DNA of 64,000 bases, from contig CAZYPW010000002.1 of the NCBI GenBank assembly GCA_964649615.1, positions 2,969-66,968 of the forward strand, read 5' to 3'. Position 1 is the first letter of the stretch. The number at the start of each line of letters is the position of its first letter. The position numbers and the translations under genes were made by a program. Under the pieces are notes generated by a model. That model saw nothing but the letters and a program-made list of their open reading frames with translations. It did no database searches and had not been told where the DNA came from. Source of the DNA: an uncultured Gammaproteobacteria bacterium. GTDB taxonomy: Bacteria > Patescibacteriota > Microgenomatia > Daviesbacterales > UBA10151. Shown here piece by piece: positions 3,849-54,639 of the stretch.

Positions 3849-3889
3849 GCATATTATGTTATTATTGGCAATGAAAATTACTCAAACCT

Positions 3890-4774: not shown

Positions 4775-4782
4775 TTTTTATT

Positions 4783-6465: not shown

Positions 6466-6477
6466 TTATTAAAGTTT

Positions 6478-9144: not shown

Positions 9145-9145
9145 T

Positions 9146-10767: not shown

Positions 10768-10791
10768 ATTTAATTTTGGTATACTCTATGT

Positions 10792-11508
10792 ATGGAACAG
10801 GTTTTTTTCGAGGAAATTAATGGCAAAAAAGTTTTTTGTTTCTTATCAGAACCAAATAATTTATCTAAAAAGATAGTTATTATGAGCCATGGTTTCAGGG
10901 GTACTAATGTAGGACCTGCCAGACAATTTGTAGATTTTCAGAGGATACTTAGTAAAGAGGGTTTTTCAGTGCTTCGTTTTGACCAGCCCAATAGCGGAAA
11001 CTCAGAAGGGAACTATATTAACTCTTCATTTAAGGAATGGGTAAATACAATTGTCTATTTTGCAAAGAAATATATTGACTTAGGGTATGATGTAAACATT
11101 TTGGGACAAAGCATGGGTGCCACAGCTACAGTTATAGCGACAAATGACCAGAAAATAGAAGATAAAGTATCCTGTTTGTTACTTTGGGTGCCTGATCCAG
11201 AAACAGATTTTTCCGGTGAATCACAAGAAATTTATGAAGAAGGTGGCCAGAAATATAAAGGAAGTTTTTGGCAGGAAGCAAAAGATGCTGACTTTTTTCA
11301 ATGCTTAAATAATTACCAAGGTAAGATACATCTAGTATATGGAGAGGTAGATAGATATATAACAAAATATTTGATCAATAAAACAATAAAAATTGTACGG
11401 GAGAAAGGACAAGACGTAATGATATTAAAAAATCAGGATCATAGTCCTTGGGAGTTTGATTTAGTACAAGAAGTTTATAAACAAGAATTAGCCAAACTAC
11501 GAGAATAA
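10792..11508 (+). CDS. Alpha/beta hydrolase
   Basis: HGFRG oxyanion region and nucleophile elbow GQSMGA (GxSxG). Confidence 0.65.
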   Translation: MEQVFFEEINGKKVFCFLSEPNNLSKKIVIMSHGFRGTNVGPARQFVDFQRILSKEGFSVLRFDQPNSGNSEGNYINSSFKEWVNTIVYFAKKYIDLGYDVNILGQSMGATATVIATNDQKIEDKVSCLLLWVPDPETDFSGESQEIYEEGGQKYKGSFWQEAKDADFFQCLNNYQGKIHLVYGEVDRYITKYLINKTIKIVREKGQDVMILKNQDHSPWEFDLVQEVYKQELAKLRE

Positions 11509-11514
11509 ATTTCA

Positions 11515-12504
11515 ATGGAACAGATTAATGAATCACTATCGATGGTACTCAGTGCAGCAGATAAGACCTATATATTAACTAGTCTCGTAGTTGAGTTTAT
11601 TGATGTCCTACAAAGAGATGGTGCGACTAGAACAACAGACATTGCTAGGGCAACTTCTTTACCCAAACGAACACTAAGACGGTTAGTTGGCGAACTCGAT
11701 TCTTGTGTGAGGATAGATCGTGATCGTTATTCATTAACTAGCGAAGGGGAACATCTGGCTTCAGAATTATTTAGCTACCGACAAAAACGCTTTGGGGAAG
11801 TGGAGAAAAGAGGAGAACAAGGGTTGGTATTGCTAGAACAGATTGAGAAGGAGCGGGGCCCATCAAAGAGAAATCTTGATCAATTCCGAGTAACACCAGC
11901 AACATCCATTGTCAGAGCTAAGCTGGCAGATGAGAAATTCGATATTGTGGGTAGGCGAATTGTCTTCTTGGGTGATAATGACCTTACGTCAGTAGCCGTA
12001 GCCACTCTTGGTGGTTCATCTAGGATAACTGTGCTTGATATAGATAGTGATGTTCTAGAAGCGATAACTAGAACAGCTAAACTACGCGATTTGAACATCG
12101 AGTGCGTTTCGTATGATGCCAGAGAGCCGCTTAAATCCAATCTGCGCGACAGCTTTGATATACTCTTTACTGATCCGCCTTACACTCGAAGTGGTGTGCG
12201 TTTGTTCTTATCGCGAGCGGCAGGGCTTTTGAATGAAGCACCTGGAACATCCTACTTCTCGTACGGTTTTAGCCTCCGCGCCCGCGAACGCGGACTTGCA
12301 ATACAGCGGTTGATTGCTGAACAAGGCTGGCTCGTTTACGGTATGTGGCCAGGATTCAATCAGTATTACGCGGCAGGTTCAATTGGAGCACGATCTGATT
12401 TATATCGTTTGATTCGTACCCCAAAGACAGTAAACCTAGTCCCAGGACGTTTCCTTGATAACATCTATACAGGCCTAGATTTATCACAACCGCATTTGGC
12501 ATAA
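11515..12504 (+). CDS. DUF43-family protein (BpsA-like branched-chain polyamine synthase / methyltransferase fold) with an N-terminal wHTH
   Basis: IVFLGDNDLTSVA and FTDPPYT motifs recalled for DUF43, plus an N-terminal winged-helix segment. Confidence 0.45.
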   Translation: MEQINESLSMVLSAADKTYILTSLVVEFIDVLQRDGATRTTDIARATSLPKRTLRRLVGELDSCVRIDRDRYSLTSEGEHLASELFSYRQKRFGEVEKRGEQGLVLLEQIEKERGPSKRNLDQFRVTPATSIVRAKLADEKFDIVGRRIVFLGDNDLTSVAVATLGGSSRITVLDIDSDVLEAITRTAKLRDLNIECVSYDAREPLKSNLRDSFDILFTDPPYTRSGVRLFLSRAAGLLNEAPGTSYFSYGFSLRARERGLAIQRLIAEQGWLVYGMWPGFNQYYAAGSIGARSDLYRLIRTPKTVNLVPGRFLDNIYTGLDLSQPHLA

Positions 12505-12545
12505 ATAGAAATCTATGCTAGAATTAGCAACTCAAAGTCAATCAA

Positions 12546-13568
12546 ATGGCAAAACAAGAATTTATAGGATATAGTACTCATTGTCTTCAAGACGTTCAGA
12601 GGCGTTTAGCCCAAGTAGACGCAACTCCAAATGAGGAAATTGGGCAACATTTCCTGGTTAATCAAGGAGCTATAGATTTGTTGGCACAAACAGTAAATCC
12701 AGGGAGTACTGTAATAGAGGTAGGCTGTGGGGTAGGACATATAACTGAAAGGTTGGCAGAAAGAGCAGCAAAGTTACATGGTATTGAGATTGACCGAAGG
12801 TATAGGCCTCTTCTGGATGGGTTGACTAGCAGATTCAGTAATTTAAATGTAATTTATGGGGATGCATTAGCAGTAGATTTTGATAGGCTATTACATGGTG
12901 ATAAACAAGAAGATGGGCAAATTATTGCAAGTTTACCGTATCATATTACTGAACCATTTATACAAAAAGTTACTCCGCTAAAATTGTCTAGTGTAACTTT
13001 AGTAGTAGGTAGAAGGTATGCTGACTCAATAGCTGCTTCAGTTGATTCAGGTGAGTTTGGCAGATTAAGTATTCTAACTGCAACATTTTTTGATGTTGAA
13101 ACACTGGCAACAATTCAAAGAGATGGATTCTTCCCGATTCCAAGAACTGATTCAGCAATGGTACAGCTTAGACCAAGAGAGCCAGAAGAAGTAGGATCTA
13201 ATAGAAGAGATATCATATTTAGACATTTATTTCTGACATCAAAGCAAAATTCAACATTAAGAAAGGGTTTGAAGGAAGGATTAGATGTATTTGAACTAGC
13301 TAGAGATAGTATAGGTTTATCTAAAAAGGAACGTAACCGTAAATCCAGAGTCAATACAAAACTACGTTTAAGAGAAGCTTTAGGACAGGTTAATAGAGGG
13401 AATGTCGATAGTGAAAATCAATCAGATGCTTCTAATTCAGCAAGTTTACTGTCCAGATTGAGTAGAAATACAATCGCCAAATTAAATATTCCCGATATGA
13501 CACTTGATAAGCCATTTGCGCTACTCAATAATTCAGAATTAAGAATGCTCTATCAGTCTTTAGGTTAA
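12546..13568 (+). CDS. KsgA/Dim1/Erm-family rRNA adenine N6-dimethyltransferase with an extended C-terminus
   Basis: QHFLVNQ (QNFL-like) motif, SAM motif EVGCGVGHIT, LPYHITEP (NLPYNIS-like). 340 aa, longer than KsgA (about 270) or Erm (about 245). Confidence 0.75.
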   Translation: MAKQEFIGYSTHCLQDVQRRLAQVDATPNEEIGQHFLVNQGAIDLLAQTVNPGSTVIEVGCGVGHITERLAERAAKLHGIEIDRRYRPLLDGLTSRFSNLNVIYGDALAVDFDRLLHGDKQEDGQIIASLPYHITEPFIQKVTPLKLSSVTLVVGRRYADSIAASVDSGEFGRLSILTATFFDVETLATIQRDGFFPIPRTDSAMVQLRPREPEEVGSNRRDIIFRHLFLTSKQNSTLRKGLKEGLDVFELARDSIGLSKKERNRKSRVNTKLRLREALGQVNRGNVDSENQSDASNSASLLSRLSRNTIAKLNIPDMTLDKPFALLNNSELRMLYQSLG

Positions 13569-13759
13569 TCTTTCCAAGCGAATATCTTATAGGAAGGGAT
13601 CGTTTCTCTTTTCTGGTATTATTTCGTATATGCCTGAATTAGATAAATCTTTTGTAGAAATTAAAAAGTAGCTCAAGATATTTAAAGAGTGTTTCTCTCT
13701 GTTTAATAGTTGTAAGTGGCTCAATAACTGGTGCTACCCTAGCATCATTTAACTTGTAA

Positions 13760-14040
13760 ACTCCAGAGGAAATTTTTTATTTTCTTTCTTGCTCTCTTCT
13801 TTCTAAATCTCTTTTATGCTGTGATGCCTCATATAAAAAAGGAGAGGGTAGTAAAGAAATATTAGAAAGTTTTAGTAGTAATAAATCAAGATTCTATACT
13901 TTCTTAACTAAAGAAAATTTAAATAGCTTGCTGGAAGATGCAGGTTTTAAGATTATTGAGACTTATGAAATAAATGAGAGGGAAAGATTTGGACCTACAA
14001 AACGAGATCTTATTTGGATCCACTCCTTCTCAAAAATATA
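13760..14040 (+). pseudogene. Start-less remnant of a methyltransferase C-terminus
   Basis: Open frame after a stop at 13757 with no ATG, ending ...LEDAGFKIIETYEINERERFGPTKRDLIWIHSFSKI*. Resembles the C-terminal region of class I methyltransferases. Confidence 0.35.
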
Positions 14041-42056: not shown

Positions 42057-42138
42057 CTTGTGAGGAAGAGATTTTACTTTGGCTGAATCTTCATTATCTC
42101 TTTGCATTAAATATTTTACCCCTTGAAATAATTTAAAT

Positions 42139-42159
42139 ATATCCCTATACTGGGGATAT
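42139..42159. promoter_or_regulatory. Putative CsoR-type operator
   Basis: Palindrome ATATCCC-tatact-GGGGATAT overlapping the -10 region and start codon of csoR. Resembles the C/G-tract pseudo-palindromes bound by CsoR. Confidence 0.4.
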
Positions 42160-42433
42160 GGCATACCGACCAAAAGATACTCAGGAAAGAATACTCCATA
42201 GGTTAAAGATTGCCCAGGGGCACTTAAAAAAAGTTTTAAGGATGGTGGAAGGCGGCGAATATTGCATTGATGTTATCCATCAATCACGGGCAGTACAAAG
42301 GGCTTTGCAGGAAGCAGATAACCTGGTTTTGGAAAATCACCTGAAGGGTTGTGTGGTTGATCATATTAAAAAAGGCGAATCAGATTCTTCTATAAAAGAA
42401 ATAATGCATGTTTTTAAAAAAAGAGAAACATGA
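42158..42433 (+). CDS. csoR: CsoR/RcnR-family metal-sensing transcriptional repressor
   Basis: DUF156 fold with C...H...C ligand pattern (YCIDVIHQ ... HLKGC). Confidence 0.7.
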   Translation: MAYRPKDTQERILHRLKIAQGHLKKVLRMVEGGEYCIDVIHQSRAVQRALQEADNLVLENHLKGCVVDHIKKGESDSSIKEIMHVFKKRET

Positions 42434-42927
42434 ATGGCAAAAAAATTATTATTGGTTTTGTAACCTTTACCCTTCTCATATTGGGAGGTGGAATTTATAT
42501 TTTAAGTGCGGCCAGCACCAATCCTGCTGCGGTGATCTCTTCCCAAAATGCCAAGGTTTCTGCTGATGAAAAAACTTATGACTGGGGTAATATTAATTAT
42601 AGCGGGCCGGATGCCACCAAGGCCTTCACCATCAAAAATACCGGCACTGATGTATTGAAGCTGACCAATATTAAAACTTCCTGTGCCTGTACATATGCTC
42701 AAATTGTTATTGATGGAAAGGTTAGCCCGAAATTTGGTATGCATAGTACTTCCTCCTGGGTTGGAGAAGTGCCTGTTGGTAAGGAAGCTCAACTTATTGT
42801 TGTTTTTAACCAGGATTTTCATGGCCCAACAGGAGTAGGGCCAATTGAAAGACTAATCTCTGTTGAGACAAATGACATACAAAATCCCAGCTTAGAGTTT
42901 TCCTTAAAAGGAATAGTGGTAAAGTAA
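42430..42927 (+). CDS. DUF1573 domain protein
   Basis: YDWGNI...FTIKNTGTDVLKLTNIKTSCACT matches the DUF1573 signature ending sCgCT. Confidence 0.5.
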   Translation: MNGKKIIIGFVTFTLLILGGGIYILSAASTNPAAVISSQNAKVSADEKTYDWGNINYSGPDATKAFTIKNTGTDVLKLTNIKTSCACTYAQIVIDGKVSPKFGMHSTSSWVGEVPVGKEAQLIVVFNQDFHGPTGVGPIERLISVETNDIQNPSLEFSLKGIVVK

Positions 42928-42941
42928 ATTCAAAAATCAAA

Positions 42942-43886
42942 ATGCAAAAGCCAAAAATACAATTCAAAATTAAAAATTTTCTTTCTACAGCTGTTCCCTT
43001 GTGGATGATTTTGTTAATAGTATTCAATTCGACTCTGGCTATGGGTTTTGGGCAATATTACCTAATGAAACTTGAGCTGCAAAAAAATATAAAGGAACTT
43101 TCTAAGAGCTTAGATCCTGTTCAAATGGCGGCAGCATTGAAACAGGAAGTTTTGCCACAAAAAGGCTATATGACTTCCCTTAAATGGAAGGATTTGGGTA
43201 AAAAACTGATTGAAGCCGGGGCAATTGATAAACAAAAATATGAACAAATCTTTACCCTTCAATCAGACGGGGCAGACCATATGAAATATATGGATGGAAA
43301 CTGGGATGAAAATATTACTATCACTGAGGAAAATAGCCGTTTTATGGCCAATACTTTATGGGCTTTGGGCTTGGTGAACAAAAGCAGAGTTTTAGATAAA
43401 GGGCCGATGAGGGAAGAAGGGATTGAAACTGCTAATATGGCCTCAACTGGCGGATGGACTTTAGGGATAAAACCTGCCATGGAAATTTATTCCTCTGCAG
43501 AAATTATTCCTCTAACTTTGGAGCAGCAGGATTTAGTGAAAAGGATTGCGGATAATGTATTTCGGCCTTGCTGCGGGAATGCCACCAGCTTTCCGGATTG
43601 TAATCACGGCATGGCAGCTTTGGGCTATATTGAGTGGGCAGTTTATAATGGTTTGAGCGAACAGCAAATATACAAAGACCTGCTGGCTTTTAATTCCTTC
43701 TGGTTTCCGCAAAATTATGTTGATTTAGCAGTATACTTTGAAAAACAGGGAATTAAATGGAAAGATCTTAATCCGAAACTGGCTTTGTCTTCCTCTTATT
43801 CTTCTGCCCAGAGTGCCCAGCGGATTAAACAATCCATCCAGCCTGTTCCCGGGGTTGGCGGAGACGGAGGGGGTTGTAGTGTTTAA
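42942..43886 (+). CDS. Secreted hypothetical protein with a Cys cluster
   Basis: N-terminal TM and RPCCGNATSFPDCNHG motif. Confidence 0.3.
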   Translation: MQKPKIQFKIKNFLSTAVPLWMILLIVFNSTLAMGFGQYYLMKLELQKNIKELSKSLDPVQMAAALKQEVLPQKGYMTSLKWKDLGKKLIEAGAIDKQKYEQIFTLQSDGADHMKYMDGNWDENITITEENSRFMANTLWALGLVNKSRVLDKGPMREEGIETANMASTGGWTLGIKPAMEIYSSAEIIPLTLEQQDLVKRIADNVFRPCCGNATSFPDCNHGMAALGYIEWAVYNGLSEQQIYKDLLAFNSFWFPQNYVDLAVYFEKQGIKWKDLNPKLALSSSYSSAQSAQRIKQSIQPVPGVGGDGGGCSV

Positions 43887-44699
43887 ATGGAGAATATCTT
43901 TTTTCAAACCTCGCTGATAGCCGCATTTGTGGCCGGGATGGTGGCTTTATTTGCCCCCTGCTGCATTACTTTTTTACTGCCTGCTTATTTAGGCAGCGTT
44001 TTTAAGGAGAAAGAAAAAGTGCTCCTGATGACTTTGGTTTTCGGGGCAGGAATTTTCGTGGTGCTTTTGCCAGCTGTTTTAGGAGTGGCTTTAATTTCAC
44101 AACTTTTGTTTCGCTATCATGATGTTATCTATATTTTAGGTGGCCTGGTGATGATAGCAGTGGCCATAACCACTTTTTTAGGAATCAAGATGCCGATGCC
44201 TAATTTGCCTCAGGCTAATGTTGGAGGAAGGACAGATGTGTTTTCTATTTTTACCCTAGGAATTTTTTCAGGGCTAACCAGCGCTTGCTGTGCACCTGTT
44301 TTAATTGGCATTATGGCTTTAACCTTGCTCTCTCCCAGCTTTTTCGGGGCTCTTTTAATAGGAGGAATGTATGTGTTAGGTATGATAGTTCCGCTTCTTT
44401 TCATCTCTATTTTTCTGTCAGGTAAGATTTCAAAAATGGCTTTACTGAGAAAACCAATTATAGGGAATGTTACTTTAAGTAACCTGATTGCCTCGGTTAT
44501 TTTTTTGATAACAGGCATATTGGCTTTATGGTTAACATTAACCGGCAGGCTGTCTGCTTCCAACATGGATCAGTTCACTGAAACTATTACTACTTCTTTA
44601 AGCTGGGTTAATGATGCAGTTGGAGAAAACGGCATATTAAATTTTGGTTTTTTGATAATAATTATTTTGTTTATTTATTGGATTGCCAAAAAGGTTTAA
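43887..44699 (+). CDS. CcdA/DsbD-family thiol-disulfide transmembrane protein
   Basis: FAPCCITFLLPAYLG resembles the CcdA SPCvLPllPaYL motif. A second Cys pair is SACCAPVL. Confidence 0.55.
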   Translation: MENIFFQTSLIAAFVAGMVALFAPCCITFLLPAYLGSVFKEKEKVLLMTLVFGAGIFVVLLPAVLGVALISQLLFRYHDVIYILGGLVMIAVAITTFLGIKMPMPNLPQANVGGRTDVFSIFTLGIFSGLTSACCAPVLIGIMALTLLSPSFFGALLIGGMYVLGMIVPLLFISIFLSGKISKMALLRKPIIGNVTLSNLIASVIFLITGILALWLTLTGRLSASNMDQFTETITTSLSWVNDAVGENGILNFGFLIIIILFIYWIAKKV

Positions 44700-44948
44700 T
44701 ATTGATTAAAGGGGGTGATTTTATATGATGGGCTACGGAAATTGGGGAGGATACTCTGGTATGATGAATTCAGGATTTGGGATTTTGGCCACTGCTTTTT
44801 GGCTGGTAATTTTAGTGGACCTGATTCTTTTGGGTGTTTGGCTATGGAAACAAATAAATAAAAATAAATAGGTTAGGAAAAATGTTAAATGCGAAACCCA
44901 TAGAAGATAAATGGGCCAAATAGTTTAAATATGAGAGGATGATAATCT

Positions 44949-45308
44949 ATGGAGATAGACAAAGTAATTGTCATTGTTTTAGGTTTAGTAGGTATAGCTT
45001 TTACTTTCTGGTTTTTTCTGATGAAGAAAGAAAAGGAGGTGATTGTGGTGGATGAAGTGGATATTAAAGTAAGTGGTGGTTATTCACCTGAGGTAATCTC
45101 TATAGCTAAAGGAAAATTAACGAAAATTAATTTTTTAAGAACAGATCCAACTGATTGTTTATCAGAGGTAGTTTTGGGTGATTTTAAAATTAGAAAAGAA
45201 TTACCTTTAAATCAGAAAGTAACGATAGAAGTTACCCCTCAAAAGGAAGGGGAATATAAATTTAGTTGTGGAATGAATATGTATCATGGCCGGATAGTAG
45301 TTCGTTAG
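44949..45308 (+). CDS. Cupredoxin-like copper-binding domain protein
   Basis: TM anchor plus C-terminal ...EGEYKFSCGMNMYHGRIVV (C/H/M ligand pattern). Motif repeated in 51358-52353. Confidence 0.45.
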   Translation: MEIDKVIVIVLGLVGIAFTFWFFLMKKEKEVIVVDEVDIKVSGGYSPEVISIAKGKLTKINFLRTDPTDCLSEVVLGDFKIRKELPLNQKVTIEVTPQKEGEYKFSCGMNMYHGRIVVR

Positions 45309-45397
45309 TTCGTGATTGGTTAGAAGGAGATTAACGAATTATATGAATGGTGTGATAAATTATCTCGTACGATCAGTGCTTTAAAAAGGTCTCTACA

Positions 45398-47683
45398 ATG
45401 AACGATGAACTAACTAACAAACTAACCACTAAAACCTTTCCTATTAAAGGTATGCATTGTGCTTCCTGTGTCAGGATTCTGGAAAAATCCTTAAGCCGGG
45501 TTAATGGGGTTTCAAGTTGCGCGGTAAATTTGGCGACAGAAACAGCAACTGTTGATTATGATCCTAAAAAAGTAACAGATAATGATCTGGAATCTGCCGT
45601 AGCTAATGTAGGCTACATTGCAGGAATTAATGAAGAGCTTAAAACAGAGGATCAGCAAAAACAAGAGAAAGAAAAAGAGTTGAAAAGTTTGCGCAACAAA
45701 GTTTTTATAAGTTTGGGTTTGGGATCCTTAATTGTCTGGGGATCTTTCCCTGGACTGATGGAATTTGCTCCCCTGATTTTAAAAAACTTTTGGGTGCAGC
45801 TGATTTTGGCCATTCCGGTGCAATTTTGGGCAGGTTTGACTTTTTACCAGGCTACTCTTCCTGCCTTACGCCACCGTACTGCCAATATGGACACACTGGT
45901 AGCAATCGGTACGACAGTGGCTTTTTCCTATTCCGCAGTTGTAACCATTTTTCCTCAACTACTTGTAAGCATAGGAGTAAAACCAGAGCCGTATTTCGAT
46001 GTTTCCACCATAATCATTGGTCTTATCTTATTAGGGAGATATTTTGAGGCTAAAGCCAAAGCTGGAACTTCAGAAGCCATCAAAAAACTAATTGGGCTGC
46101 AAGCCAAAACAGCCAGAGTTGTAAGAGGGGGTAAAGAGGTAGATATACCAATAGATCAGGTAGTGATTGGGGATACTATCAGAGTCAGGCCGGGAGAAAA
46201 GATTCCGGTTGACGGGATAATTTTAGAAGGTCAGTCTTCAATTGATGAATCTATGATAACAGGAGAAAGTATTCCTTCTGATAAGTCGAAAGGTGATACA
46301 GTTATCGGGGCAACCATTAATAAAACCGGCACTTTTTTATATAAAGCAACTAAGGTTGGATCAGACACCATGCTTTCACAAATTATAAAACTGGTAGCAG
46401 AGGCTCAAGCCAGTAAAGCTCCAATACAAAGACTGGCTGATTTAATTTCTTCTTATTTTGTGCCAATAGTGATTATACTGGCAATTCTTACTTTTGTAAT
46501 CTGGTATGTTTTTGGCCCCTCCCCTGCTTTTCTTTTTGCCATGTTAAATATGGTGGCTGTGTTAATTATTGCCTGTCCCTGTGCCATGGGTTTGGCCACC
46601 CCGACTGCTATTATGGTGGGAACAGGCATTGGGGCGAACAAAGGAATTTTAATTAAAGACGCAGCCAGTTTAGAAACTGCCCATAAGATTAATACTGTCA
46701 TTTTTGATAAGACCGGGACCTTAACTAAGGGAAAGCCGGAAGTAACAGATGTAATTTACAGTTCACAGTTAGTTAGTGATTCGTTAGTTAGTAAAAACAG
46801 TGAACCAAGTAACCAACTAACCAATAACATTCTACGTTTGGCTGCCTCGCTTGAAAAAGGTTCGGAGCATTCTTTAGCTGAGGCAATTGTTAACAAAGGT
46901 GAAGAGGAAAAGGTAAAGTTTATGAAAGTAGCAAACTTTAAGGCAATCCCGGGCCATGGTGTGGAGGGGATAATTGGCGGAAAGAAAGTTGCCTTAGGCA
47001 ATAGGAGGCTGATGGAAAGACAGGGTATAAATATAGATGAGAAAGTGGTGGAAAGATTGGAAAATGAAGGTAAAACAGTGATGATGCTTGCTGTGGATGG
47101 AAAGGCGGCAGGATTAATTGCTGTGGCAGATACACTTAAGGATTCTGCCAAAGATGGAGTAGAAGCGCTTACAAAAAAGAATATAGAGGTAATTATGATT
47201 ACCGGAGACAACCAAAGAACTGCTCAAGCCATCGCCAAACAGGTAGGAATTAAAAGGGTTCTGGCAGAGGTTTTGCCCGATCAAAAAGAAGCAGAAGTTA
47301 AAAAGATTCAAGCTGAAAATAAAAAAGTTGCTATGGTGGGTGATGGCATTAATGACGCACCGGCGCTTGCAGCTGCAGATATCGGGATTGCCATGGGATC
47401 TGGTACTGATGTGGCAATTGAATCCGCCGGAATTACTTTAATAAATAAAGATTTGACATCTGTAGTATCGGCAGTAGAGCTTTCCAAAAAAACTATGAGG
47501 ACCATAAGATTAAATTTATTTTGGGCTTTCGGGTATAATATTATTTTGATACCTGTGGCTATGGGAATATTGTACCCAAATTTTGGAATATTGCTTAATC
47601 CTATTTTTGCATCAGGTGCTATGGCTTTAAGTTCAATATCAGTTGTTTCAAATTCACTTTTACTTAAAAGGTTTAAAATGTAA
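45398..47683 (+). CDS. copA: Copper-translocating P1B-type ATPase
   Basis: N-terminal [14 protein letters not shown] motif [26 protein letters not shown]. Confidence 0.9.
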
Positions 47684-47703
47684 TTGACTAGATATTAATT
47701 TAG

Positions 47704-47720
47704 TACTACACTATGTAGTA
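47704..47720. promoter_or_regulatory. BlaI/CopY-type operator box
   Basis: Perfect dyad TACTACA-cta-TGTAGTA with TACA/TGTA half-sites, overlapping the promoter of the blaI-like gene. Confidence 0.5.
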
Positions 47721-47723
47721 AAT

Positions 47724-48116
47724 ATGAGCAGTAAACAAAAAGTTGGCAAAGTTTTAGGTGAGTTAGAATCAGAAGTGATGAAAGTCATTTGGCAATCTCA
47801 AAGTTCTGTTCCAGTAAGAGGTATTACTGAAATTCTTCAAAAAAAGCGTAAAATTGCCTATACCACTGTAATGACTATAATGAATCGTTTAGTAGATAAA
47901 AAACTTTTGAGCCGTAAACAGGATGGTAGGGCTTATCTATATAAGTCTGCAGAATCTAGAGATAAGTTTTTAACTAGAATTTCCCGTCAAATCATCAAAA
48001 ACTTTGTCTCAAGCTTTGGCGATGCAGCTGTTGCATATTTTGTTGACGAGTTAGAAAAGACGCCAGTTAAGAGACAAGCAAGGCTAATCAAATTACTTAA
48101 GGACTCAAATGAATAG
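47724..48116 (+). CDS. BlaI/MecI/CopY-family transcriptional repressor
   Basis: Penicillinase-repressor wHTH (ITEILQKKRKIAYTTVMTIMNRLVDKKLLSRKQDGRAYLY). No C-terminal Cys metal motif. Confidence 0.7.
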   Translation: MSSKQKVGKVLGELESEVMKVIWQSQSSVPVRGITEILQKKRKIAYTTVMTIMNRLVDKKLLSRKQDGRAYLYKSAESRDKFLTRISRQIIKNFVSSFGDAAVAYFVDELEKTPVKRQARLIKLLKDSNE

Positions 48117-48921
48117 TAATTTTATATTTAGTTACTGTCAGCAAGTTTTGTCCAATTATTCTTCTATAATATATTCTATAATCGGAGTACTACTGTCAGT
48201 AGCTTTAATCTATCTAGCTTTACAGCTTTTTTTCACCAACCAATTTCTAAAAAGATATTTAAAAAAGAGAGTTAAATCTTCTGATAAACTTTCTAAAATT
48301 GCCTTACCACTTAAGATCTTAGATAGAGTTGATGTAGTTGATTCTAAAGCAAATCTTGTTTTCTGTTATGGAATTTTGAGACCGAGGATAGTTTTGAGTT
48401 CACAACTGACCAATTCTTTAAGTGATAAGCAGCTGCGAGCAGTATTACTCCATGAAAGTTGTCACTTAAAAAGTTACGATCCTTTAAAAATTGTTTTGAG
48501 TAGAACTTTATCCTCAATATTCTTTTTTATTCCCCTACTCAAGGATCTGCAAAGACATTATATGCTGACAAAAGAGATTGTTGCTGATATGGAAGTAATA
48601 AAATACAGCGGCAAGGAAGTTTTGATATCAGTTTTGTCTAAACTCATAACATCGAGATTTTCTAGTTTGAATACTATTGCGGCGTTGGTAACAACAAATG
48701 ATTTAGAGAAAAGGATACTTTATCTGGGTGGTAAACAAAAAAGCATCGCCTTCCAACCGCCTATGTTTAATATAGCTATTTCCATCTTTATGGTCGTTGC
48801 CTTATTCATAGTAATTAGTACCCCTGTTTATGCTGTAAAAAACCAAGAAGGTGGTTTTTGTAAGACAGAAAATCAGGTTAACTATAGTCAGCACTTACCA
48901 TACACACCTTTGCCTAACTAA
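48109..48921 (+). CDS. BlaR1-like M56 peptidase domain protein lacking a sensor domain
   Basis: HESCH HExxH motif in a membrane context, overlapping the blaI-like stop. At 270 aa it is far shorter than a sensor-containing BlaR1. Confidence 0.55.
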   Translation: MNSNFIFSYCQQVLSNYSSIIYSIIGVLLSVALIYLALQLFFTNQFLKRYLKKRVKSSDKLSKIALPLKILDRVDVVDSKANLVFCYGILRPRIVLSSQLTNSLSDKQLRAVLLHESCHLKSYDPLKIVLSRTLSSIFFFIPLLKDLQRHYMLTKEIVADMEVIKYSGKEVLISVLSKLITSRFSSLNTIAALVTTNDLEKRILYLGGKQKSIAFQPPMFNIAISIFMVVALFIVISTPVYAVKNQEGGFCKTENQVNYSQHLPYTPLPN

Positions 48922-48948
48922 TCTCTATTGACAAACCCCAAAATAATC

Positions 48949-48965
48949 TACTACACTATGTAGTA
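48949..48965. promoter_or_regulatory. BlaI/CopY-type operator box, second copy
   Basis: Identical TACTACActaTGTAGTA dyad downstream of a TTGACA -35, upstream of the dsbA-like gene. Confidence 0.5.
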
Positions 48966-48967
48966 AC

Positions 48968-49693
48968 ATGAATATATCAACTGCTCAAAGTATTTTAATA
49001 GGTTCAATTATCATTTCTCTAGCAATTCTAATAAGTGGAGGGATTATTAAGTTTGGAACACCTGTATCATCAACCACAGGGTCCCCAACAACACAAGCCG
49101 CTGTCCCTACCCAATTACCTCCTGAACCTCAAGCTGGTCCTGTAGAGCCTTTAAAAGTAGAAGATCATGTCAGGGGTGATAGAAAAGCCAGGATTTTGCT
49201 TTTTGAATACTCTGATTTAGAATGTCCATTCTGTAAGAGATTTCACCCAACTGCCCAACAGGTAGTTGATGAGTATAAAGGTACTGTAGCTTGGGTTTAC
49301 AGACATTTTCCTCTAGATCAAATTCATTCTAAAGCAGACAAAGAAGCAGAGGCTATAGAATGTGCTAATGAGCTTGGAGGAAATGATGGATTCTGGAAGA
49401 TGGCTGATAAAATTTTTGAAGTTACCCCGTCAAATAATGGATTAAACCTAGATGATCTGCCAAAACTGGCTTCACAAGTGGGGTTGGATCAGAATAAATT
49501 CAAATCTTGCCTTGATTCTGGTAAATATGCTGCTCATGTAGAGGAAGATTATCAGGGAGGTATTAAAGCCGGTATCACTGGCACTCCGGGTAACATTTTA
49601 CTTGATACCAAAACAGGTAAAACAGTTTCCATACCGGGAGCAGTTCCGTTTGAGCAGATTAAACCGTCAATTGACGAATTATTGAAGTCATGA
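48968..49693 (+). CDS. DsbA-like thioredoxin-fold thiol:disulfide oxidoreductase
   Basis: CPFC active site (ECPFCKRF), N-terminal TM anchor. Confidence 0.65.
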   Translation: MNISTAQSILIGSIIISLAILISGGIIKFGTPVSSTTGSPTTQAAVPTQLPPEPQAGPVEPLKVEDHVRGDRKARILLFEYSDLECPFCKRFHPTAQQVVDEYKGTVAWVYRHFPLDQIHSKADKEAEAIECANELGGNDGFWKMADKIFEVTPSNNGLNLDDLPKLASQVGLDQNKFKSCLDSGKYAAHVEEDYQGGIKAGITGTPGNILLDTKTGKTVSIPGAVPFEQIKPSIDELLKS

Positions 49694-49702
49694 ACCTGAA
49701 CA

Positions 49703-50260
49703 ATGAAGCAGTATCTATTTTATTACGTCAGTAACAAGCTTGCTTATCTTTTCTCTGCCAGTAAAATAATTTTCAGTGACAAAAGATATATATTGGGATT
49801 TATGGGTGTAGCCATTGCCATGTTTTGGCTGCTACTTTATATCCCAATTAGGACTGTGCCTGGAAATGACCTTGCCTTCCAGCTGAGTATTTTAACCCCT
49901 AAAGATTGGTTTCTATTTACTCTCCTACCAGTTTTAACTGCTCTTTCTATAGTGATGAATATTTATATCTTAAGAAACAAAAGTTCTATTCGGGATAGTG
50001 CTTCCATGGCTGGGCAAGGAGGCACCGGATTTTTATCCGGGGTTATTGCCTCGGTTTTTGGCACAGCATCTTGCGCTTCTTGTTTGGCTTCTATTTTTGG
50101 CTTTTTAGGAGTAGGCGGAGTATTATTTCTACTACAATACCGAACCTATATTACCGCAGCTGCTATTATTTTGTTGCTTATTTCACTTTATTTTACTTCC
50201 AAAAGAGTGCTCAATGCTTGTGAAAGTTGCAGAATAGGAGTGCATAAACATGGCAACTAA
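49703..50260 (+). CDS. Membrane protein with two CxxC motifs (possible VKOR/DsbB-like partner)
   Basis: Four or more TM segments, CASC within a TM and a C-terminal CESC. Confidence 0.3.
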   Translation: MKQYLFYYVSNKLAYLFSASKIIFSDKRYILGFMGVAIAMFWLLLYIPIRTVPGNDLAFQLSILTPKDWFLFTLLPVLTALSIVMNIYILRNKSSIRDSASMAGQGGTGFLSGVIASVFGTASCASCLASIFGFLGVGGVLFLLQYRTYITAAAIILLLISLYFTSKRVLNACESCRIGVHKHGN

Positions 50261-50840
50261 TCTGGTCAATAGAAAACTCCATATTGTAATCATACTATTG
50301 TTAGTCATAGCAGCTGCTGTCTACTTTGGGTCATTCTCAAAAAAGAGCAGTATTAATCCTTTAGTAAATCAGGCTCTGGCAGCTAAGTTTGATTATTTGA
50401 GCAAGAACGGTAACTCTTCTTGCTCTCAATCTTTTCAAACATCTATTCCTGCTATGTCAGACAATGTGCGTCTACAAGGCTCTTGTTGTTCTCCTATGAG
50501 TATGCATCGTTATCAAGAGCAAGTTGAGGGTTTGAAAAAGTATAAAGAATCTGCTGAAATTCCTATTGATCCTTATGATATTGAAGCTGGGCTTGCCAAA
50601 AAACTACTTTCGTATTATGACTTGCAATTAACTCCAGATGAACAGAAAGAATATGATTACGCTATGCAAAATTCTAATGAAAAAGGTCCTTGTTGTTGTA
50701 AGTGTTGGAGATGGTATGTTTATGGGGGTTTGGGAAAATATTTAATAACAGAGAAAGGATTTACAGGAGAGCAGGTTACTGAGGTATGGAATTTATCAGA
50801 TGGTTGTGGTGGAGAAGGAGACCACGTACAGCATACGTAA
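50250..50840 (+). CDS. Secreted Cys-rich protein
   Basis: Signal/TM then CC/CCC clusters (CCSPMSMH, GPCCCKCWRW). Confidence 0.3.
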   Translation: MATNLVNRKLHIVIILLLVIAAAVYFGSFSKKSSINPLVNQALAAKFDYLSKNGNSSCSQSFQTSIPAMSDNVRLQGSCCSPMSMHRYQEQVEGLKKYKESAEIPIDPYDIEAGLAKKLLSYYDLQLTPDEQKEYDYAMQNSNEKGPCCCKCWRWYVYGGLGKYLITEKGFTGEQVTEVWNLSDGCGGEGDHVQHT

Positions 50841-50846
50841 CTAGCA

Positions 50847-51341
50847 ATGAAGACAGAAACTAAGGTTATTATAGGAGGTGCCATATTTACCATCCTACTT
50901 TTGGTTGGTGCTGCTTTCCTTCTATCCAGAGAAGAAAAAGTTAATGTATCAGAAGATCAAATCATATCAAGAAAAGGTATACACTGGCATCCTAGACTGA
51001 CAATTTTAATCAAGGGAGAAAAACAGGAAATCCCTGCAGATTTTGGTTTAGGAGCAGTACATTCGCCAATCCATACTCACGCTGCTGATAGTAAAGAGGG
51101 TATCTTACATATGGAAATATCAGGCCTGGTGACTAAGGATGAGACAAAATTGAGCAAATGGTTTCAACTTTGGGGAAAGCAGTTTAACTCCAACTGTATT
51201 TTTGATAAATGTAATGGAGAAGAGGGAACTGTTAAAATGTTTGTTAATGGGCAGGAAAATGAGCAAAGCTCTTCTGTGAATAAAGAATTTGAGAATTATC
51301 AAATGAAAGATGGAGATAATATAGAAATTAAATACGAATAA
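50847..51341 (+). CDS. Secreted His-rich protein
   Basis: Signal/TM and a His cluster (HWHP...VHSPIHTHAADS...LHME). Confidence 0.3.
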   Translation: MKTETKVIIGGAIFTILLLVGAAFLLSREEKVNVSEDQIISRKGIHWHPRLTILIKGEKQEIPADFGLGAVHSPIHTHAADSKEGILHMEISGLVTKDETKLSKWFQLWGKQFNSNCIFDKCNGEEGTVKMFVNGQENEQSSSVNKEFENYQMKDGDNIEIKYE

Positions 51342-51357
51342 AAGGTAAACTAAATAT

Positions 51358-52353
51358 ATGGATCTTTGGCTGATATTTTTAACCGGTTTAACTGTGGGAG
51401 GATTAACCTGTTTGGCTGTACAAGGTGGGCTTTTAGCTTCTGTGATTGCCGCAAAAGAGGAAGAGGAAGTTGAAAAAGGGATCAATACTAAAAATACAGT
51501 TTTCCCCACACTTTCGTTTCTTGCCGCAAAACTTGTTTCATATACAGTTTTAGGCTTTCTCTTGGGAGCTTTTGGAGGCGCATTAAATATTTCTCCTAAA
51601 GTTCAAACTGCCATGCAATTTTTAGCAGGACTATATATGGTTTTTATTGCGCTGGATTTGTTAAAAGTACATCCGATTTTCCGCTACGCAGTTATTCAAC
51701 CGCCCAGATTTTTAACAAGAGTAGTTAGAAACCAATCAAAAAGTAAAGATTTATTTGCTCCCGGCTTTTTGGGAGCGTTAACCGTCTTTATTCCCTGTGG
51801 GACAACTTTAGCAATGGAGGCTTTGGCAATTTCATCCGGCAATGCCATCTTGGGTGCTTTAATTATGGCTGTTTTTGTATTGGGTACTATCCCTTTGTTT
51901 TTTGGGGTGGGTTTTTTAACTTCTGTTTTAGGGGATAATTTCAGAGGTGGATTTTTAAAACTGGCAGGAATTATTGTTTTATATTTGGGGTTTATTTCAG
52001 CTAATGGAGCATTAGCAGCAGGAGGATTCCCTTTTGTACAAATTGATTTAAGCGGTGCAAATTATCAGGCCCAAAATAATGCTCCTGCTTCTCAAAATGT
52101 GCAAATAAATATCAATTCAACAGGTTATAGTCCCAACTATATCAAAGTCAAAAAAGGTGAGGCAGTTAATTTAACTTTAAAAAGCACTAATGCTTTCAGC
52201 TGCGCCCTGTCTTTTAGGATTCCTTCTTTGAGCATCAACAGGAATTTGCAGCCCAATGATACCCAGCTGATTAGCTTTGTTCCTACCCAAAAGGGCCAAA
52301 TTCCCTTTAGTTGTTCTATGGGGATGTATCGAGGGATAATAGAGGTAATATGA
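51358..52353 (+). CDS. DsbD_2-like polytopic membrane protein fused to a C-terminal cupredoxin-like domain
   Basis: GLTVGGLTCLAVQGG TM Cys motif. C-terminal KGEAVNLTLKSTNAFSC...IPFSCSMGMYRGIIEV matches ORF 44949. Confidence 0.4.
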   Translation: MDLWLIFLTGLTVGGLTCLAVQGGLLASVIAAKEEEEVEKGINTKNTVFPTLSFLAAKLVSYTVLGFLLGAFGGALNISPKVQTAMQFLAGLYMVFIALDLLKVHPIFRYAVIQPPRFLTRVVRNQSKSKDLFAPGFLGALTVFIPCGTTLAMEALAISSGNAILGALIMAVFVLGTIPLFFGVGFLTSVLGDNFRGGFLKLAGIIVLYLGFISANGALAAGGFPFVQIDLSGANYQAQNNAPASQNVQININSTGYSPNYIKVKKGEAVNLTLKSTNAFSCALSFRIPSLSINRNLQPNDTQLISFVPTQKGQIPFSCSMGMYRGIIEVI

Positions 52354-52577
52354 TAAAGAAAACACTAAAGATCCAAGGAATGCACTGCAGTTCTTGTGCC
52401 ATGAATATTGATTTTAATTTAGAGGATTTAGCAGGCGTTAAATCAGTAAAAACCAGTTATGCAAAACAAGAAACAGAAATTGAATATGAAGAAGGTAAAG
52501 TAGAAGTTGAGCAAATTTTACAGCAGGTGCAAAAAACAGGTTATAGTGCAAAGGAGAAAGATTTAATAGAAGTTTAA
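52350..52577 (+). CDS. copZ: Heavy-metal-associated copper chaperone
   Basis: LKIQGMHCSSCAMNI MxCxxC HMA motif. ATGA overlap with the upstream stop. Confidence 0.8.
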   Translation: MIKKTLKIQGMHCSSCAMNIDFNLEDLAGVKSVKTSYAKQETEIEYEEGKVEVEQILQQVQKTGYSAKEKDLIEV

Positions 52578-52647: not shown

Positions 52648-53100
52648 TTAAACACCAGCAGGTAAATGTGATCTTCCATACCGCCTACTAATCATTGCAT
52701 TATATGCTGCTATTTGTTCCCTTTCATCTCTCGCAATTTCTTTCATTGCTTCTAGGTAAGCTTCATCCCAAACCTCCCTTGAAAGTCTTGGGTTTATCAT
52801 CTGTAATCCTTCGGGAAAAACTATAGTTGGTAACTCAGCACCATCCTTATTACTTTTTGGTATATTAAAGATAACTGTTTTCCTTCCTTCGTTAATACTA
52901 CGAATACCCCAAACATCATGAGCAAAAGTATATTGCCCTGGGCCCACCTTTGTATCTATTGTTTTACGCTTTATTGCTAAAGGTTCAGCTTCAGTAGTTT
53001 GAGGAGCCTGACTTTTGACAGTCAAGGGCCTTTTGTATTCAATTAAAGTATTTCTTCTTCTTATACCGAAGTAGTATTGTTTATTTTCAGGACTTCTCAT
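52648..53100 (-). CDS. Hypothetical protein
   Basis: ORF only. Confidence 0.3.
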   Translation of the reverse strand: MRSPENKQYYFGIRRRNTLIEYKRPLTVKSQAPQTTEAEPLAIKRKTIDTKVGPGQYTFAHDVWGIRSINEGRKTVIFNIPKSNKDGAELPTIVFPEGLQMINPRLSREVWDEAYLEAMKEIARDEREQIAAYNAMISRRYGRSHLPAGV

Positions 53101-53326
53101 AGTTGATTACGCCTAAAGTCTAGCACTAACTGAGCAAATGTGCAACAATTCAACTAATGATGGTACAACAACTACTTTTTCTAAAGATAAATTATTCTTA
53201 ACTTTTGGTGTTAAAAACATCTATTCAGGATCTGGGGATAACAAAAAGCTGGTAGGCTACAAGGCATATATTGAACATAATTGAATTTATCAAATAGTTT
53301 TTGACATTCATGGTAAAATATCACAA

Positions 53327-54028
53327 ATGAGTCTTGAGAGTGAAGCCAGAAAACAATTAGAAGCACAAAGGCGTGCTGCCCAAGAACAGGAAAGACAAAG
53401 ATTAGCCCAACAACAAGCTGCAGAGGCAAAAAGGCGCACTGATAAACTTAATGAAGAGCAAGGTAGAGCTCAAGCTTTATCAAAATTTAGAGGTTTAAAT
53501 CCTGAAAGATTCCTTGAAGAAGTAAGGCATGCGTGGGGTGTTGGTCGGATAGTACGTTTCTCTGATCCCTTATATAAAGTATTTGATGTTTATGGTGCTC
53601 CTACTGCTATTGATGGAGTAATGTTATATCAACGGGGAAATGCCCAACATTCAAGGAAATCAGAAAAAGGTGAATATCCTTATCATTCATCAGATGGTTT
53701 TCACCCAGCGGGAAGGAGCAGCGTGTGGAAACCTGCTAGTACTGTTGATACTGATACATATCCTGTAGATATTGCAAGAATCTATGTATCTATAGGTAAT
53801 GTGGTGGTAGAAGATAAATATGGATCCTATCAATCACAGAAATTAAGCATCCACAAAGGGCTTTTCAGTACAGAAAGATCTGAAAGTAGCAGGTACTTTA
53901 TGTCTAGTCATCCTTATTCAACCGTGCGATTTGATATTGACAGTGTAAGACCTGAGGATATACGTTCATTCTTTGTAGAAACTACAGCACGCCGTATGGG
54001 GGGAGAAGGTAACATAAGAATTCGATAA
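53327..54028 (+). CDS. Hypothetical protein with an N-terminal coiled-coil/Q-rich segment
   Basis: ORF; QLEAQRRAAQEQERQRLAQQQAAEAKRR. Confidence 0.3.
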   Translation: MSLESEARKQLEAQRRAAQEQERQRLAQQQAAEAKRRTDKLNEEQGRAQALSKFRGLNPERFLEEVRHAWGVGRIVRFSDPLYKVFDVYGAPTAIDGVMLYQRGNAQHSRKSEKGEYPYHSSDGFHPAGRSSVWKPASTVDTDTYPVDIARIYVSIGNVVVEDKYGSYQSQKLSIHKGLFSTERSESSRYFMSSHPYSTVRFDIDSVRPEDIRSFFVETTARRMGGEGNIRIR

Positions 54029-54069
54029 CTTCATTTGATATAGGTCGAATATATTCAGGGAAAATAAGT

Positions 54070-54639
54070 ATGTCTATCCAAGAAAGGCTTTCCCAAATTC
54101 AAAGAGAAGGTGAGGGTTTGGTTAACAGAATCGATCAAAAACGTAAGCTGGCAGAATTAAAAAATCAGCTTGCTCAATCCTCAGGAATAGGTAAGGGGAG
54201 ACAAATTGAGCGTTTAAGGGGGATATTAGTAGACACTGGCCTTGTGGATATGCTAGTTGAAGCAGTTGACCTTATCCCTAAGGTAGATGTCATTTGTACA
54301 GATTCAAGTAATCCTGTACCTGATCCTAATGGGGACTGGGCAATCCATATGCAATGGGATCAAAAGGGAGATGTAAGTGCAGGGATTACTGAGTCTTGGA
54401 AGGAATTTGAATTATACGTTCAACAAGATAAAATGTTTGTTTATTCAAGGTTATATGAGTTACCGGTAAATAACCAGCATATTTCCTATAGATATCAGAT
54501 GATAAAAGAGGAATATTTTAAAGATAGTTTAGAGAGTGAGCAATGGGGAAATAAAGAAAGATTGGAATCATCAATAGCTGATGCTTTATGGAAGGCTGAT
54601 ATCAGACCAAATGAAGCTGAAAGAGGCAGATTATTATGA
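54070..54639 (+). CDS. Hypothetical protein
   Basis: ORF only. Confidence 0.3.
   Translation: MSIQERLSQIQREGEGLVNRIDQKRKLAELKNQLAQSSGIGKGRQIERLRGILVDTGLVDMLVEAVDLIPKVDVICTDSSNPVPDPNGDWAIHMQWDQKGDVSAGITESWKEFELYVQQDKMFVYSRLYELPVNNQHISYRYQMIKEEYFKDSLESEQWGNKERLESSIADALWKADIRPNEAERGRLL

Follow-up and report, generated by a model that had tools for sequence, protein, structure and literature searches.

Gene content of the locus

We analyzed a 64,000-nucleotide stretch of DNA, hereafter called the window (contig CAZYPW010000002.1, forward strand), which belongs to a genome of Candidatus Daviesbacteria in the Candidate Phyla Radiation (CPR). At 42139-52577 its plus strand carries a copper locus in which genes for copper and thiol handling are combined with two unrelated repressors, one a CsoR protein and the other of the BlaI type, and each repressor has an operator of its own. 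This combination had been proposed in a first-pass annotation of the same DNA, and all 14 genes listed there were recovered with the same boundaries and orientation. The list was incomplete, since a conserved membrane open reading frame (ORF) of 48 amino acids at 44725-44871 had been overlooked; with it the locus comprises 15 co-directional genes. Consecutive genes overlap or are separated by 0-46 bp, the exceptions being a gap of 249 bp, which houses the small ORF, and one of 89 bp 5' of copA. The G+C content is 0.36-0.40 inside the locus as compared to 0.32-0.34 upstream and 0.37 downstream, a weak signal of a foreign island.

Relatives were collected by scanning the alignment of the M56 protease family, a member of which is encoded next to the BlaI-type repressor, against one genome per species. 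This gave 80 loci, to which a protein look-up added one more; loci are cited below by L numbers. The named relatives found in our searches were mostly Daviesbacteria or Levybacteria (CPR/Microgenomates).

Five of the encoded proteins, which we refer to as Cys314, TM270, TM185, Cys196 and His164, matched no Pfam or NCBIfam family even at E ≤ 10, and the same was true of the 48-amino-acid ORF. A sequence search of the PDB with Cys314, Cys196 and His164 returned no match.

Two repressors with separate operators

The first gene of the locus, csoR (42158-42433), encodes a protein of 91 amino acids that matches PF02583 at 82.3 bits (cut-off 22.8) and has its best solved relatives in the CsoR proteins of Geobacillus and Mycobacterium tuberculosis. 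Residues Y35-C36, H61 and C65 match the Cu(I) ligands of the M. tuberculosis protein (YCIDV...NHLKGC as compared to YCVDV...NHLETC in M. tuberculosis). Judged by these signatures the protein would be a Cu(I)-type member of its family, and Cu(I)-dependent release of DNA is predicted. Its promoter, TTGAAA-17-TATACT, and a CsoR-type operator, ATATCCCtatactgGGGATAT (42139-42159), together occupy 42123-42159. The operator is a palindrome with a GC core that overlaps the -10 element of csoR's own promoter, and the palindrome ATATCCCC..GGGGGATAT is conserved 5' of csoR in six relatives (L004, L005, L007, L011, L087 and L088).

The second repressor gene, blaI (47724-48116), encodes a winged-helix protein of the BlaI/CopY family (Penicillinase_R, PF03965, 95 bits) that is 130 amino acids long and contains no Cys. 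Its best solved relative is the M. tuberculosis BlaI protein Rv1846c. All 27 CPR homologs share four residues, G99, A102, A104 and F106, which align to the cleavage site of MecI; F106 falls on the Phe of the site at which MecI and BlaI are cut between N101 and F102.

A 17-bp palindrome of the BlaI/CopY type, TACTACActaTGTAGTA (TACTACACTATGTAGTA), occurs in exactly two copies in the window, at 47704-47720 and 48949-48965. There was no other match within two mismatches, and a single match with three mismatches lies at 62527. For matches with three or fewer mismatches the chance expectation was 0.14, and the observed count was reached in none of 100 shuffled sequences. Each copy overlaps the -10 element (TACACT) of a TTGACW promoter: the blaI promoter, TTGACT-17-TACACT, extends with its operator over 47684-47720 and ends 3 nt 5' of the blaI ATG, and the dsbA promoter, TTGACA-18-TACACT, extends with the second, identical operator over 48928-48965 and ends 2 nt 5' of the dsbA start. 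Both of the operator types postulated by the first-pass annotation, that of CsoR and that of the BlaI-like protein, therefore exist in this DNA. The half-sites TACA/TGTA are those of BlaI, MecI and CopY operators. They are separated by 3 nt here as compared to 2 nt in the cop-box consensus KACANNTGTA (PMC7253601).

We found no Shine-Dalgarno sequence at the three promoters (42123-42159, 47684-47723 and 48928-48967), and the predicted transcription starts lie a few nucleotides from the start codons, so that the first genes of the three operons appear to be leaderless. For csoR a leaderless mRNA is also implied by the operator, which runs into the ATG.

A minimal M56 protease

The gene following blaI (48109-48921, overlapping it by 8 nt) encodes a truncated zinc protease of the M56, BlaR1-type family, 270 amino acids long with the motif HESCH (PF05569, 63 bits). 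The protein aligns only to residues 102-321 of BlaR1, which comprise helix 3, the protease domain and helix 4, and the residues of its HExxH motif (H115, E116 and H119) are invariant among homologs. In the predicted layout the HESCH domain is cytoplasmic and lies between two transmembrane (TM) helices, one N-terminal and one C-terminal, the latter followed by an outward tail of 30 amino acids. Charge distribution thus places the first 19 and the last 30 residues outside and the protease domain in the cytoplasm; with this topology C10 and C248 would be exofacial.

The first-pass annotation described this protease as sensor-less. That description does not fit the family, since all 31 CPR members carry Cys in the predicted outward-facing loop and tail. 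The tail has at least one Cys in every member and often three or four, and the segment before the pre-protease helix contains YxCQ in Microgenomates or CGC, often followed by HxH, in the Parcubacteria type. Most of the Chloroflexi homologs, which have no copper genes nearby, have short tails without Cys.

Genes of the CsoR operon

A search for a further CsoR box before cupA or copA found none, and csoR to copA is therefore assumed to be a single long CsoR operon. The gene after csoR (42430-42927) encodes a membrane-anchored, Ig-like DUF1573 protein (44 bits) with an invariant C85-x-C87 that is predicted to lie outside. It is followed by the gene for Cys314 (42942-43886), a membrane-anchored protein of an unnamed family with the invariant motif RPCCGNxTxFPDCNHG and a C-terminal GGGC. 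This family has 1521 homologs, mostly in Daviesbacteria/Microgenomates; the sampled top matches are 61-82% identical to Cys314, and in all four relatives inspected the gene adjoins those for DUF1573 and a TM270 homolog. A structural model of Cys314 of moderate quality (mean predicted local distance difference test score, pLDDT, of 77) found no match in a fold search of the PDB.

TM270 (43887-44699) spans the membrane several times and has two conserved Cys-Cys pairs within the membrane, C25-C26 and C134-C135. It had been labeled CcdA-like; we dropped this label because the 270-residue protein has no Pfam match and hhalign gave a probability of only 2% for its alignment to the DsbD_2 domain. 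The small ORF (44725-44871) has a strong Shine-Dalgarno sequence and would specify a Gly/Met-rich, single-pass membrane protein (MMGYGNWGGYSGMM..., MMGYGNWGGYSGMMNSGFG...). ORFs of 42-48 amino acids are called at the same position, between TM270 and cupA, in L086, L087 and L088.

The next gene, cupA (44949-45308; Cupredoxin_1, 82 bits), had been annotated as encoding a cupredoxin-like protein. Its product is a membrane-anchored, CupA-like Cu(I) chaperone and not an extracytoplasmic redox cupredoxin: it matches Streptococcus pneumoniae CupA (2mry/4f2e) with an E value of 1.8e-22, the Cys...CxMxM site is intact with CGMNM conserved, and C70, C107, M109 and M111 are invariant in 21 homologs. The protein has one N-terminal helix, and by charge the domain is predicted to be cytoplasmic. 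The operon ends with copA (45398-47683), which encodes a P1B-1 Cu(I) ATPase with one N-terminal HMA domain (TIGR01511, 635 bits, cut-off 397; E1-E2 ATPase). The motifs GMHCASC, CPC, DKTGT, YN and MALSS (MxxSS) can all be read from its translation.

Genes of the dsbA-to-copZ operon

Behind the second BlaI-type operator lies dsbA (48968-49693), which encodes a membrane-anchored, DsbA-like thiol-disulfide oxidoreductase (Thioredoxin_4, 74 bits; DSBA, 55 bits). Both Cys residues of its CPFC motif, C86 and C89, are invariant in 22 homologs, and an extracytoplasmic location is suggested only by the N-terminal anchor. CPR bacteria are assumed to have a single membrane. TM185 (49703-50260) is a membrane protein with four helices, a CASC motif at the outer end of TM3 and a CESC motif in a cytoplasmic tail; its gene lies directly 3' of dsbA in L004, L007, L008 and L014. 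Probabilities from hhalign were 0.4% for TM185 against the DsbD_2 domain and 5.6% for TM185 against TM270. Cys196 (50250-50840) is an anchored, Cys-rich protein (CC, CCCxC and GCGG) with homologs in L008 and L014.

His164 (50847-51341) is an anchored, beta-grasp-like protein with invariant HWH, HTH and HxE motifs and 184 homologs. Its model (pLDDT 85) has a weak fold match to the DUF4430-type putative metal-binding protein 3u7z, and a comparison with the DUF3105 protein of L051 found no similarity. In the Levybacteria loci L089/L090 the homologs of His164 are encoded directly 5' of copA, in a CsoR locus without BlaI or M56. This ties the genes that accompany blaI-M56 to copper independently of the regulator. 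The same loci (3664-13911) also contain genes for DUF5676 (twice), DUF305, a YHS-domain protein, DsbD_TM and Redoxin around CsoR-His164-CopA(HMBD)-DsbA; the accessory gene set of copper loci is modular across Microgenomates.

The following gene (51358-52353) fuses a six-helix DsbD_2 membrane domain (PF13386, 113 bits) to a CupA-like domain (Cupredoxin_1, 55 bits). Conserved residues of the fusion are C18, C147, C282, C319, M321 and M323, of which C18 and C147 provide one invariant Cys for each half of the six-helix domain. Positive-inside counts put both termini of the fusion protein outside, so its CupA-like domain is predicted to be outside. The last gene, copZ (52350-52577), encodes an HMA domain with MHCSSC (55 bits). 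The locus ends at a convergent gene, and just 3' of it, at 52648-54639, there are three ORFs without a Pfam or NCBIfam family (150 amino acids on the minus strand; 233 and 189 amino acids on the plus strand).

Conservation of the operator and gene set in relatives

The gene set of the window co-occurs in relatives, and so does the BlaI-type box, whose absence from them the first-pass annotation would have counted against its proposal. When two or fewer mismatches were allowed, a box was present within 120 bp 5' of blaI in 18 of 27 CPR loci and within 300 bp 3' of the M56 gene in 22 of 30. Five boxes outside both of these ranges are located directly 5' of dsbA, at loci where extra genes stand between M56 and dsbA. 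The background was 8 boxes in 663 kb of non-CPR loci, and relatives without blaI had no BlaI-type box. The gene pair itself is also constant: blaI is directly 5' of M56 in 29 of 30 CPR loci, and the exception, L083, is a locus that begins at the M56 gene.

Among the closest relatives (L004-L017), the genes after blaI-M56 include those for DsbA in 13 of 14 loci, the DsbD_2-cupredoxin fusion in 10 and CopZ in 9, and in five loci of this group CsoR, CupA and CopA are encoded just 5' of blaI-M56. The genes found 3' of the second box in Microgenomates are those for DsbA, TM185, Cys196, His164, DsbD_2-cupredoxin and CopZ. At the Parcubacteria-type loci L073, L075, L080 and L082, blaI-M56 heads a whole cop operon that encodes an HMA-DsbD_2-cupredoxin triple fusion, an HMA protein, a DsbA-like protein (fused to HMA in L082), CopA and DUF1573. 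The triple fusions (HMA-DsbD_2-Cupredoxin_1) and the HMA-DsbA fusion were seen at L075 6207-7628 and at L082 7841-9604 and 9634-10614; they suggest a direct physical link between copper binding on one side and the membrane Cys pair and thioredoxin fold on the other. At L082 (6497-7728) an FtrD-like membrane iron-sulfur protein and a rhodanese-domain protein are encoded first after the BlaI-type box, before the copper genes.

Several genomes labeled "uncultured Gammaproteobacteria" (metagenome-assembled genomes; L006, L011-L018, L023, L058, L065, L076 and L078-L080) have loci that are nearly collinear with those of Daviesbacteria/Microgenomates and contain the same operator, and their labels look wrong. 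Some Anaerolineae have CsoR and/or CopA directly 5' of blaI-M56, and their blaI is preceded by a variant box, CTTACAN3TGTAAG; in Nocardiopsis mangrovi, a cultured actinomycete, copZ-copA is convergent with blaI-M56 (these observations are from L027 5425-10549, L028 1-6153 and L072 9369-12843). The actinomycete may be tractable for testing the link.

The Logan contig L004 (1564-1923 and 4240-8716) has a 23S_rRNA_IVP/bAvd-like gene between cupA and copA, and after copA it encodes a pyridine-nucleotide-disulfide oxidoreductase (possibly MerA-like), an ArsR-type regulator, DsbD_TM, a thioredoxin/AhpC-like protein and DUF3179, a set that resembles a larger metal/thiol supercluster. This oxidoreductase, along with HMA and MerTP-like NCBIfam matches, raised the possibility of a mercury locus. 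We rejected this for the window because MerA, MerR and MerT are absent from it and its CsoR, CupA and CopA carry Cu(I) signatures.

Composite origin of the locus

The first-pass annotation treated the block as one unit; comparison with relatives divides it in two. The Daviesbacteria loci L085-L088, which encode homologs of Cys314, contain one operon with the order csoR-DUF1573-Cys314-TM270-small ORF-(DUF5676 and others)-cupA-copA-DsbD_2/CupA fusion-copZ. These loci have neither blaI nor M56, and copA abuts the DsbD_2 fusion gene. The window is therefore best described as this conserved CsoR operon with a cassette, blaI-M56-dsbA-TM185-Cys196-His164 (47684-51357), inserted between copA and the fusion gene. 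As a result of the insertion the fusion gene and copZ came to lie behind the second BlaI-type operator. The cassette occurs alone, without CopA, in L014. A search for repeats or insertion scars flanking the cassette gave nothing convincing.

A two-tier model of copper defense

On balance we regard it as probable that this Candidatus Daviesbacteria locus provides a two-tier copper defense, made up of a CsoR operon and a dsbA-to-copZ operon under the control of BlaI and M56. The identities of the genes, their ligand signatures, the operators with their overlap of the promoters, and the conservation of both operators and of the gene linkage are results of the analysis; what we propose for repression, proteolysis, signal and protein topology in this CPR system is as follows. 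The first tier would be set by CsoR, which would repress csoR-copA from the palindrome over its own -10 element and would release the DNA on binding cytoplasmic Cu(I). This tier would supply the membrane-tethered CupA chaperone, the P1B-1 Cu(I) pump and three conserved envelope proteins with invariant Cys motifs. The second tier would be set by the Cys-free BlaI-like repressor, bound to its two identical palindromes over the -10 elements of blaI-M56 and of dsbA-to-copZ. Copper outside the cell, or thiol damage caused by copper, would alter the Cys residues in the N-terminal segment and C-terminal tail of M56. This would activate the cytoplasmic zinc-protease domain, and the repressor would be cut near the invariant Phe106. 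Cleavage would derepress the DsbA-like oxidoreductase, a CxxC membrane relay, the Cys-rich and His-rich exoproteins, the DsbD_2-CupA fusion and CopZ, and the joint effect of these proteins would be to bind extracellular copper and to protect or repair the thiols of the envelope.

Several points weigh against this model. The inducing signal (copper or copper-induced thiol damage) is deduced only from the content of the regulon and the conserved Cys residues, and the topologies come from simple positive-inside charge counts. Totals of exofacial Cys are usually even (1+1, 3+1 and 4+2), and these residues could form structural disulfides. At several other CPR loci the box-controlled operon encodes thioredoxin-like, DUF1573 and DUF3105 proteins and contains no recognisable copper gene, so a thiol or envelope signal fits at least as well as copper. 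We found no terminator between copA and blaI, and read-through could therefore blur the two tiers. The closest functional precedent, the cyanobacterial PetRP pair discussed below, differs in its operator, in the number of helices in the protease and in having a conserved Met in place of Cys, so that orthology with it is not established.

A broader set of claims is put forward more tentatively, and we hold it to be possible rather than probable. The minimal M56 protein may be an outward sensor of copper or copper damage that, by means of a few exofacial Cys residues, destroys a CopY-like repressor and so releases copper export and envelope thiol protection. It would then be the first proteolytic regulator of copper efflux and would form a two-compartment scheme with CsoR, analogous to CueR plus CusRS. 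The pair might also be an extant form intermediate between BlaI/BlaR1 and CopY, which works without a protease, and Cys314, TM270, TM185, Cys196, His164 and the DsbD_2-CupA fusion might represent several new copper-handling families.

Alternative explanations

The strongest competing explanation is that BlaI and M56 sense general envelope thiol-disulfide or oxidative stress and that a disulfide-maintenance regulon was recruited beside cop genes in some lineages. The most constant of the box-controlled genes do encode thioredoxin-fold proteins, as the near-universal DsbA-like gene of the closest loci illustrates, and in L051, L055, L076 and L078 the operon contains genes for thioredoxin-like, DUF1573 and DUF3105 proteins but neither CopA nor CopZ. 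This explanation therefore stands, and it could also account for the CopA-free cassette of L014 and for Cys counts that are mostly even, as disulfides would give. On the other hand, in the window and at least 12 relatives the operon encodes CopZ, a domain of the CupA type or both, and in the four Parcubacteria-type loci it encodes CopA itself. His164 adjoins CopA in Levybacteria, and PetRP, the only tested sensor-less BlaI/M56 pair with a known inducer, answers to copper. We consider a general thiol-stress system unlikely, while taking it seriously.

Another possibility is that an unrelated BlaI/M56-DsbA cassette was inserted into a cop operon by chance and that the two systems are functionally independent. 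It is true that the cop operon exists intact without the cassette (L085-L088) and that the cassette exists without the cop operon (L014). The juxtaposition recurs, however, with differing gene orders in several genomes at the species level (L004, L005, L007, L009, L010 and L011) and in the distant Parcubacteria-type lineages. About 9 of 30 CPR loci have CopA encoded no more than 10 kb from M56, as compared to a chance expectation of about 2% for a 1-Mb genome (our estimate), and the position of the second operator would put DsbD_2-CupA and CopZ under BlaI control. Incidental adjacency is accordingly quite improbable.

It could also be speculated that the BlaI-like protein is a direct metal sensor of the CopY type and that M56 is not needed for induction. 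The best NCBIfam match of the repressor is indeed the CopY/TcrY model TIGR02698 (E 3e-16), and its operator has half-sites like those of the cop box. The score of 59.7 bits is nevertheless below the cut-off of 121.95, the window repressor has no Cys, and the CopY motif CxCxxxxCxC/CxC is absent from all 27 CPR homologs of the repressor. The 8-nt overlap of blaI and M56 and the near-invariable adjacency of the two genes also argue that they work together, and a CopY-type sensor is very improbable here. Family membership is the single argument for a system responding to beta-lactams or cell-wall stress, which we regard as hardly credible given that M56 has no penicillin-binding domain (it covers BlaR1 residues 102-321 only and scores 39.7 against a cut-off of 400 with blaR1_generic) and that the regulon has no gene for a beta-lactamase or penicillin-binding protein.

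Implications of the two-tier model

Proteolytic repressor switches are known mainly from antibiotic resistance. If the two-tier model is correct, proteolytic copper sensing extends from a switch in photosynthesis to copper detoxification, and bacteria whose locus has no gene for a two-component copper sensor would have a mechanism for sensing copper outside the membrane. The model would also suggest a route by which CopY may have arisen from an ancestor that depended on a protease. Thiol-redox proteins are an integral part of the copper loci of CPR bacteria, and five unnamed protein families travel with CopA in Microgenomates; one of these exceeds 1500 members and lacks a recognisable fold.

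The CPR family is testable, with a clear predicted regulon, an exact operator and a very small candidate sensor consisting of two short segments that bear Cys. It is a compact case for asking what sensor-less BlaR proteases sense, and repressor, protease and operator could be rebuilt in Escherichia coli, as was done for PetRP.

Comparison with known systems

The first tier resembles the CsoR-regulated copZA and cso operons of Bacillus subtilis and M. tuberculosis in its C-H-C CsoR, its GC-core palindrome over the promoter and its control of a P1B-1 ATPase. It differs from them in the additional DUF1573, Cys314, TM270, small ORF and CupA, and in that CopZ is encoded apart from CopA, under a second repressor.

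The second tier shares features with the proteobacterial Scs (ScsB/ScsC) and DsbD/DsbC systems, in which a DsbA/DsbG-like thioredoxin-fold protein and a membrane protein of the DsbD superfamily are encoded together and are linked to copper tolerance. In contrast to those systems, DsbD_2 is fused here to a CupA-like domain and not to DsbD alpha/gamma domains, and control is by BlaI/M56 and not by CpxR.

In the copY-cupA-copA operon of S. pneumoniae, too, a repressor of the BlaI family is encoded together with a cupredoxin-fold CupA chaperone and a CopA pump; the operator has TACA/TGTA half-sites, and the Cys, Cys, Met, Met ligands of CupA are conserved. Pneumococcal CopY, however, is itself the sensor of Cu(I)/Zn(II), which it detects through CxC motifs at its C terminus, and it works without a protease partner, whereas the repressor of the window is Cys-free and paired with M56. 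Moreover, cupA-copA lies here behind the CsoR operator and not behind a BlaI-type box, and the half-sites are spaced by 3 nt and not by 2.

Sensor-less BlaR is the commonest M56 architecture, and its signals are mostly unknown (2026 paper, PMC13492132). The BlaIR systems of M. tuberculosis and M. abscessus and CenIR of Clostridioides difficile (PMC13492132) are similar to the pair described here in that an M56 protein without a transpeptidase domain is encoded beside a BlaI-like repressor. Their regulons concern energy metabolism or the cell envelope, and none is linked to copper genes.

The nearest parallel is found in Synechocystis, where PetP, a sensor-less M48/M56 membrane protease, degrades the Cys-free BlaI/CopY-family repressor PetR only when copper is present (10.1101/2020.07.31.226407, PNAS 2021). 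PetRP controls petE, petJ and two unknown genes by way of a GACN5GTC site (10.1101/2020.07.31.226407), and according to a 2023 review it does not drive the copper-homeostasis response (PMC10141476). Both systems have a repressor without the CopY Cys motif but with a conserved cleavage-site Phe, a protease without a penicillin-binding domain whose gene overlaps that of the repressor, and a link to copper. They differ in the operator, which is TACTACAN3TGTAGTA here, and in the regulon, which is dsbA-to-copZ as compared to petE/petJ. The proteases differ as well: PetP has three helices before the protease domain (four in all) and a conserved Met in the TM2-TM3 loop, whereas in the M56 protein of the window a single helix (two in relatives) precedes the protease domain, and the conserved residues of loop and tail are Cys.

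Our literature search found nothing that links BlaI/M56 pairs to cop operons or describes CPR copper loci. The first-pass statement that this is not a described cop architecture thus holds insofar as a BlaI/M56 pair on cop genes is concerned, but a copper-responsive BlaI/M56 pair was already known in PetR/PetP. The principle is not new; what is new is that it is wired to genes for copper export and thiol handling and superimposed on a CsoR operon.

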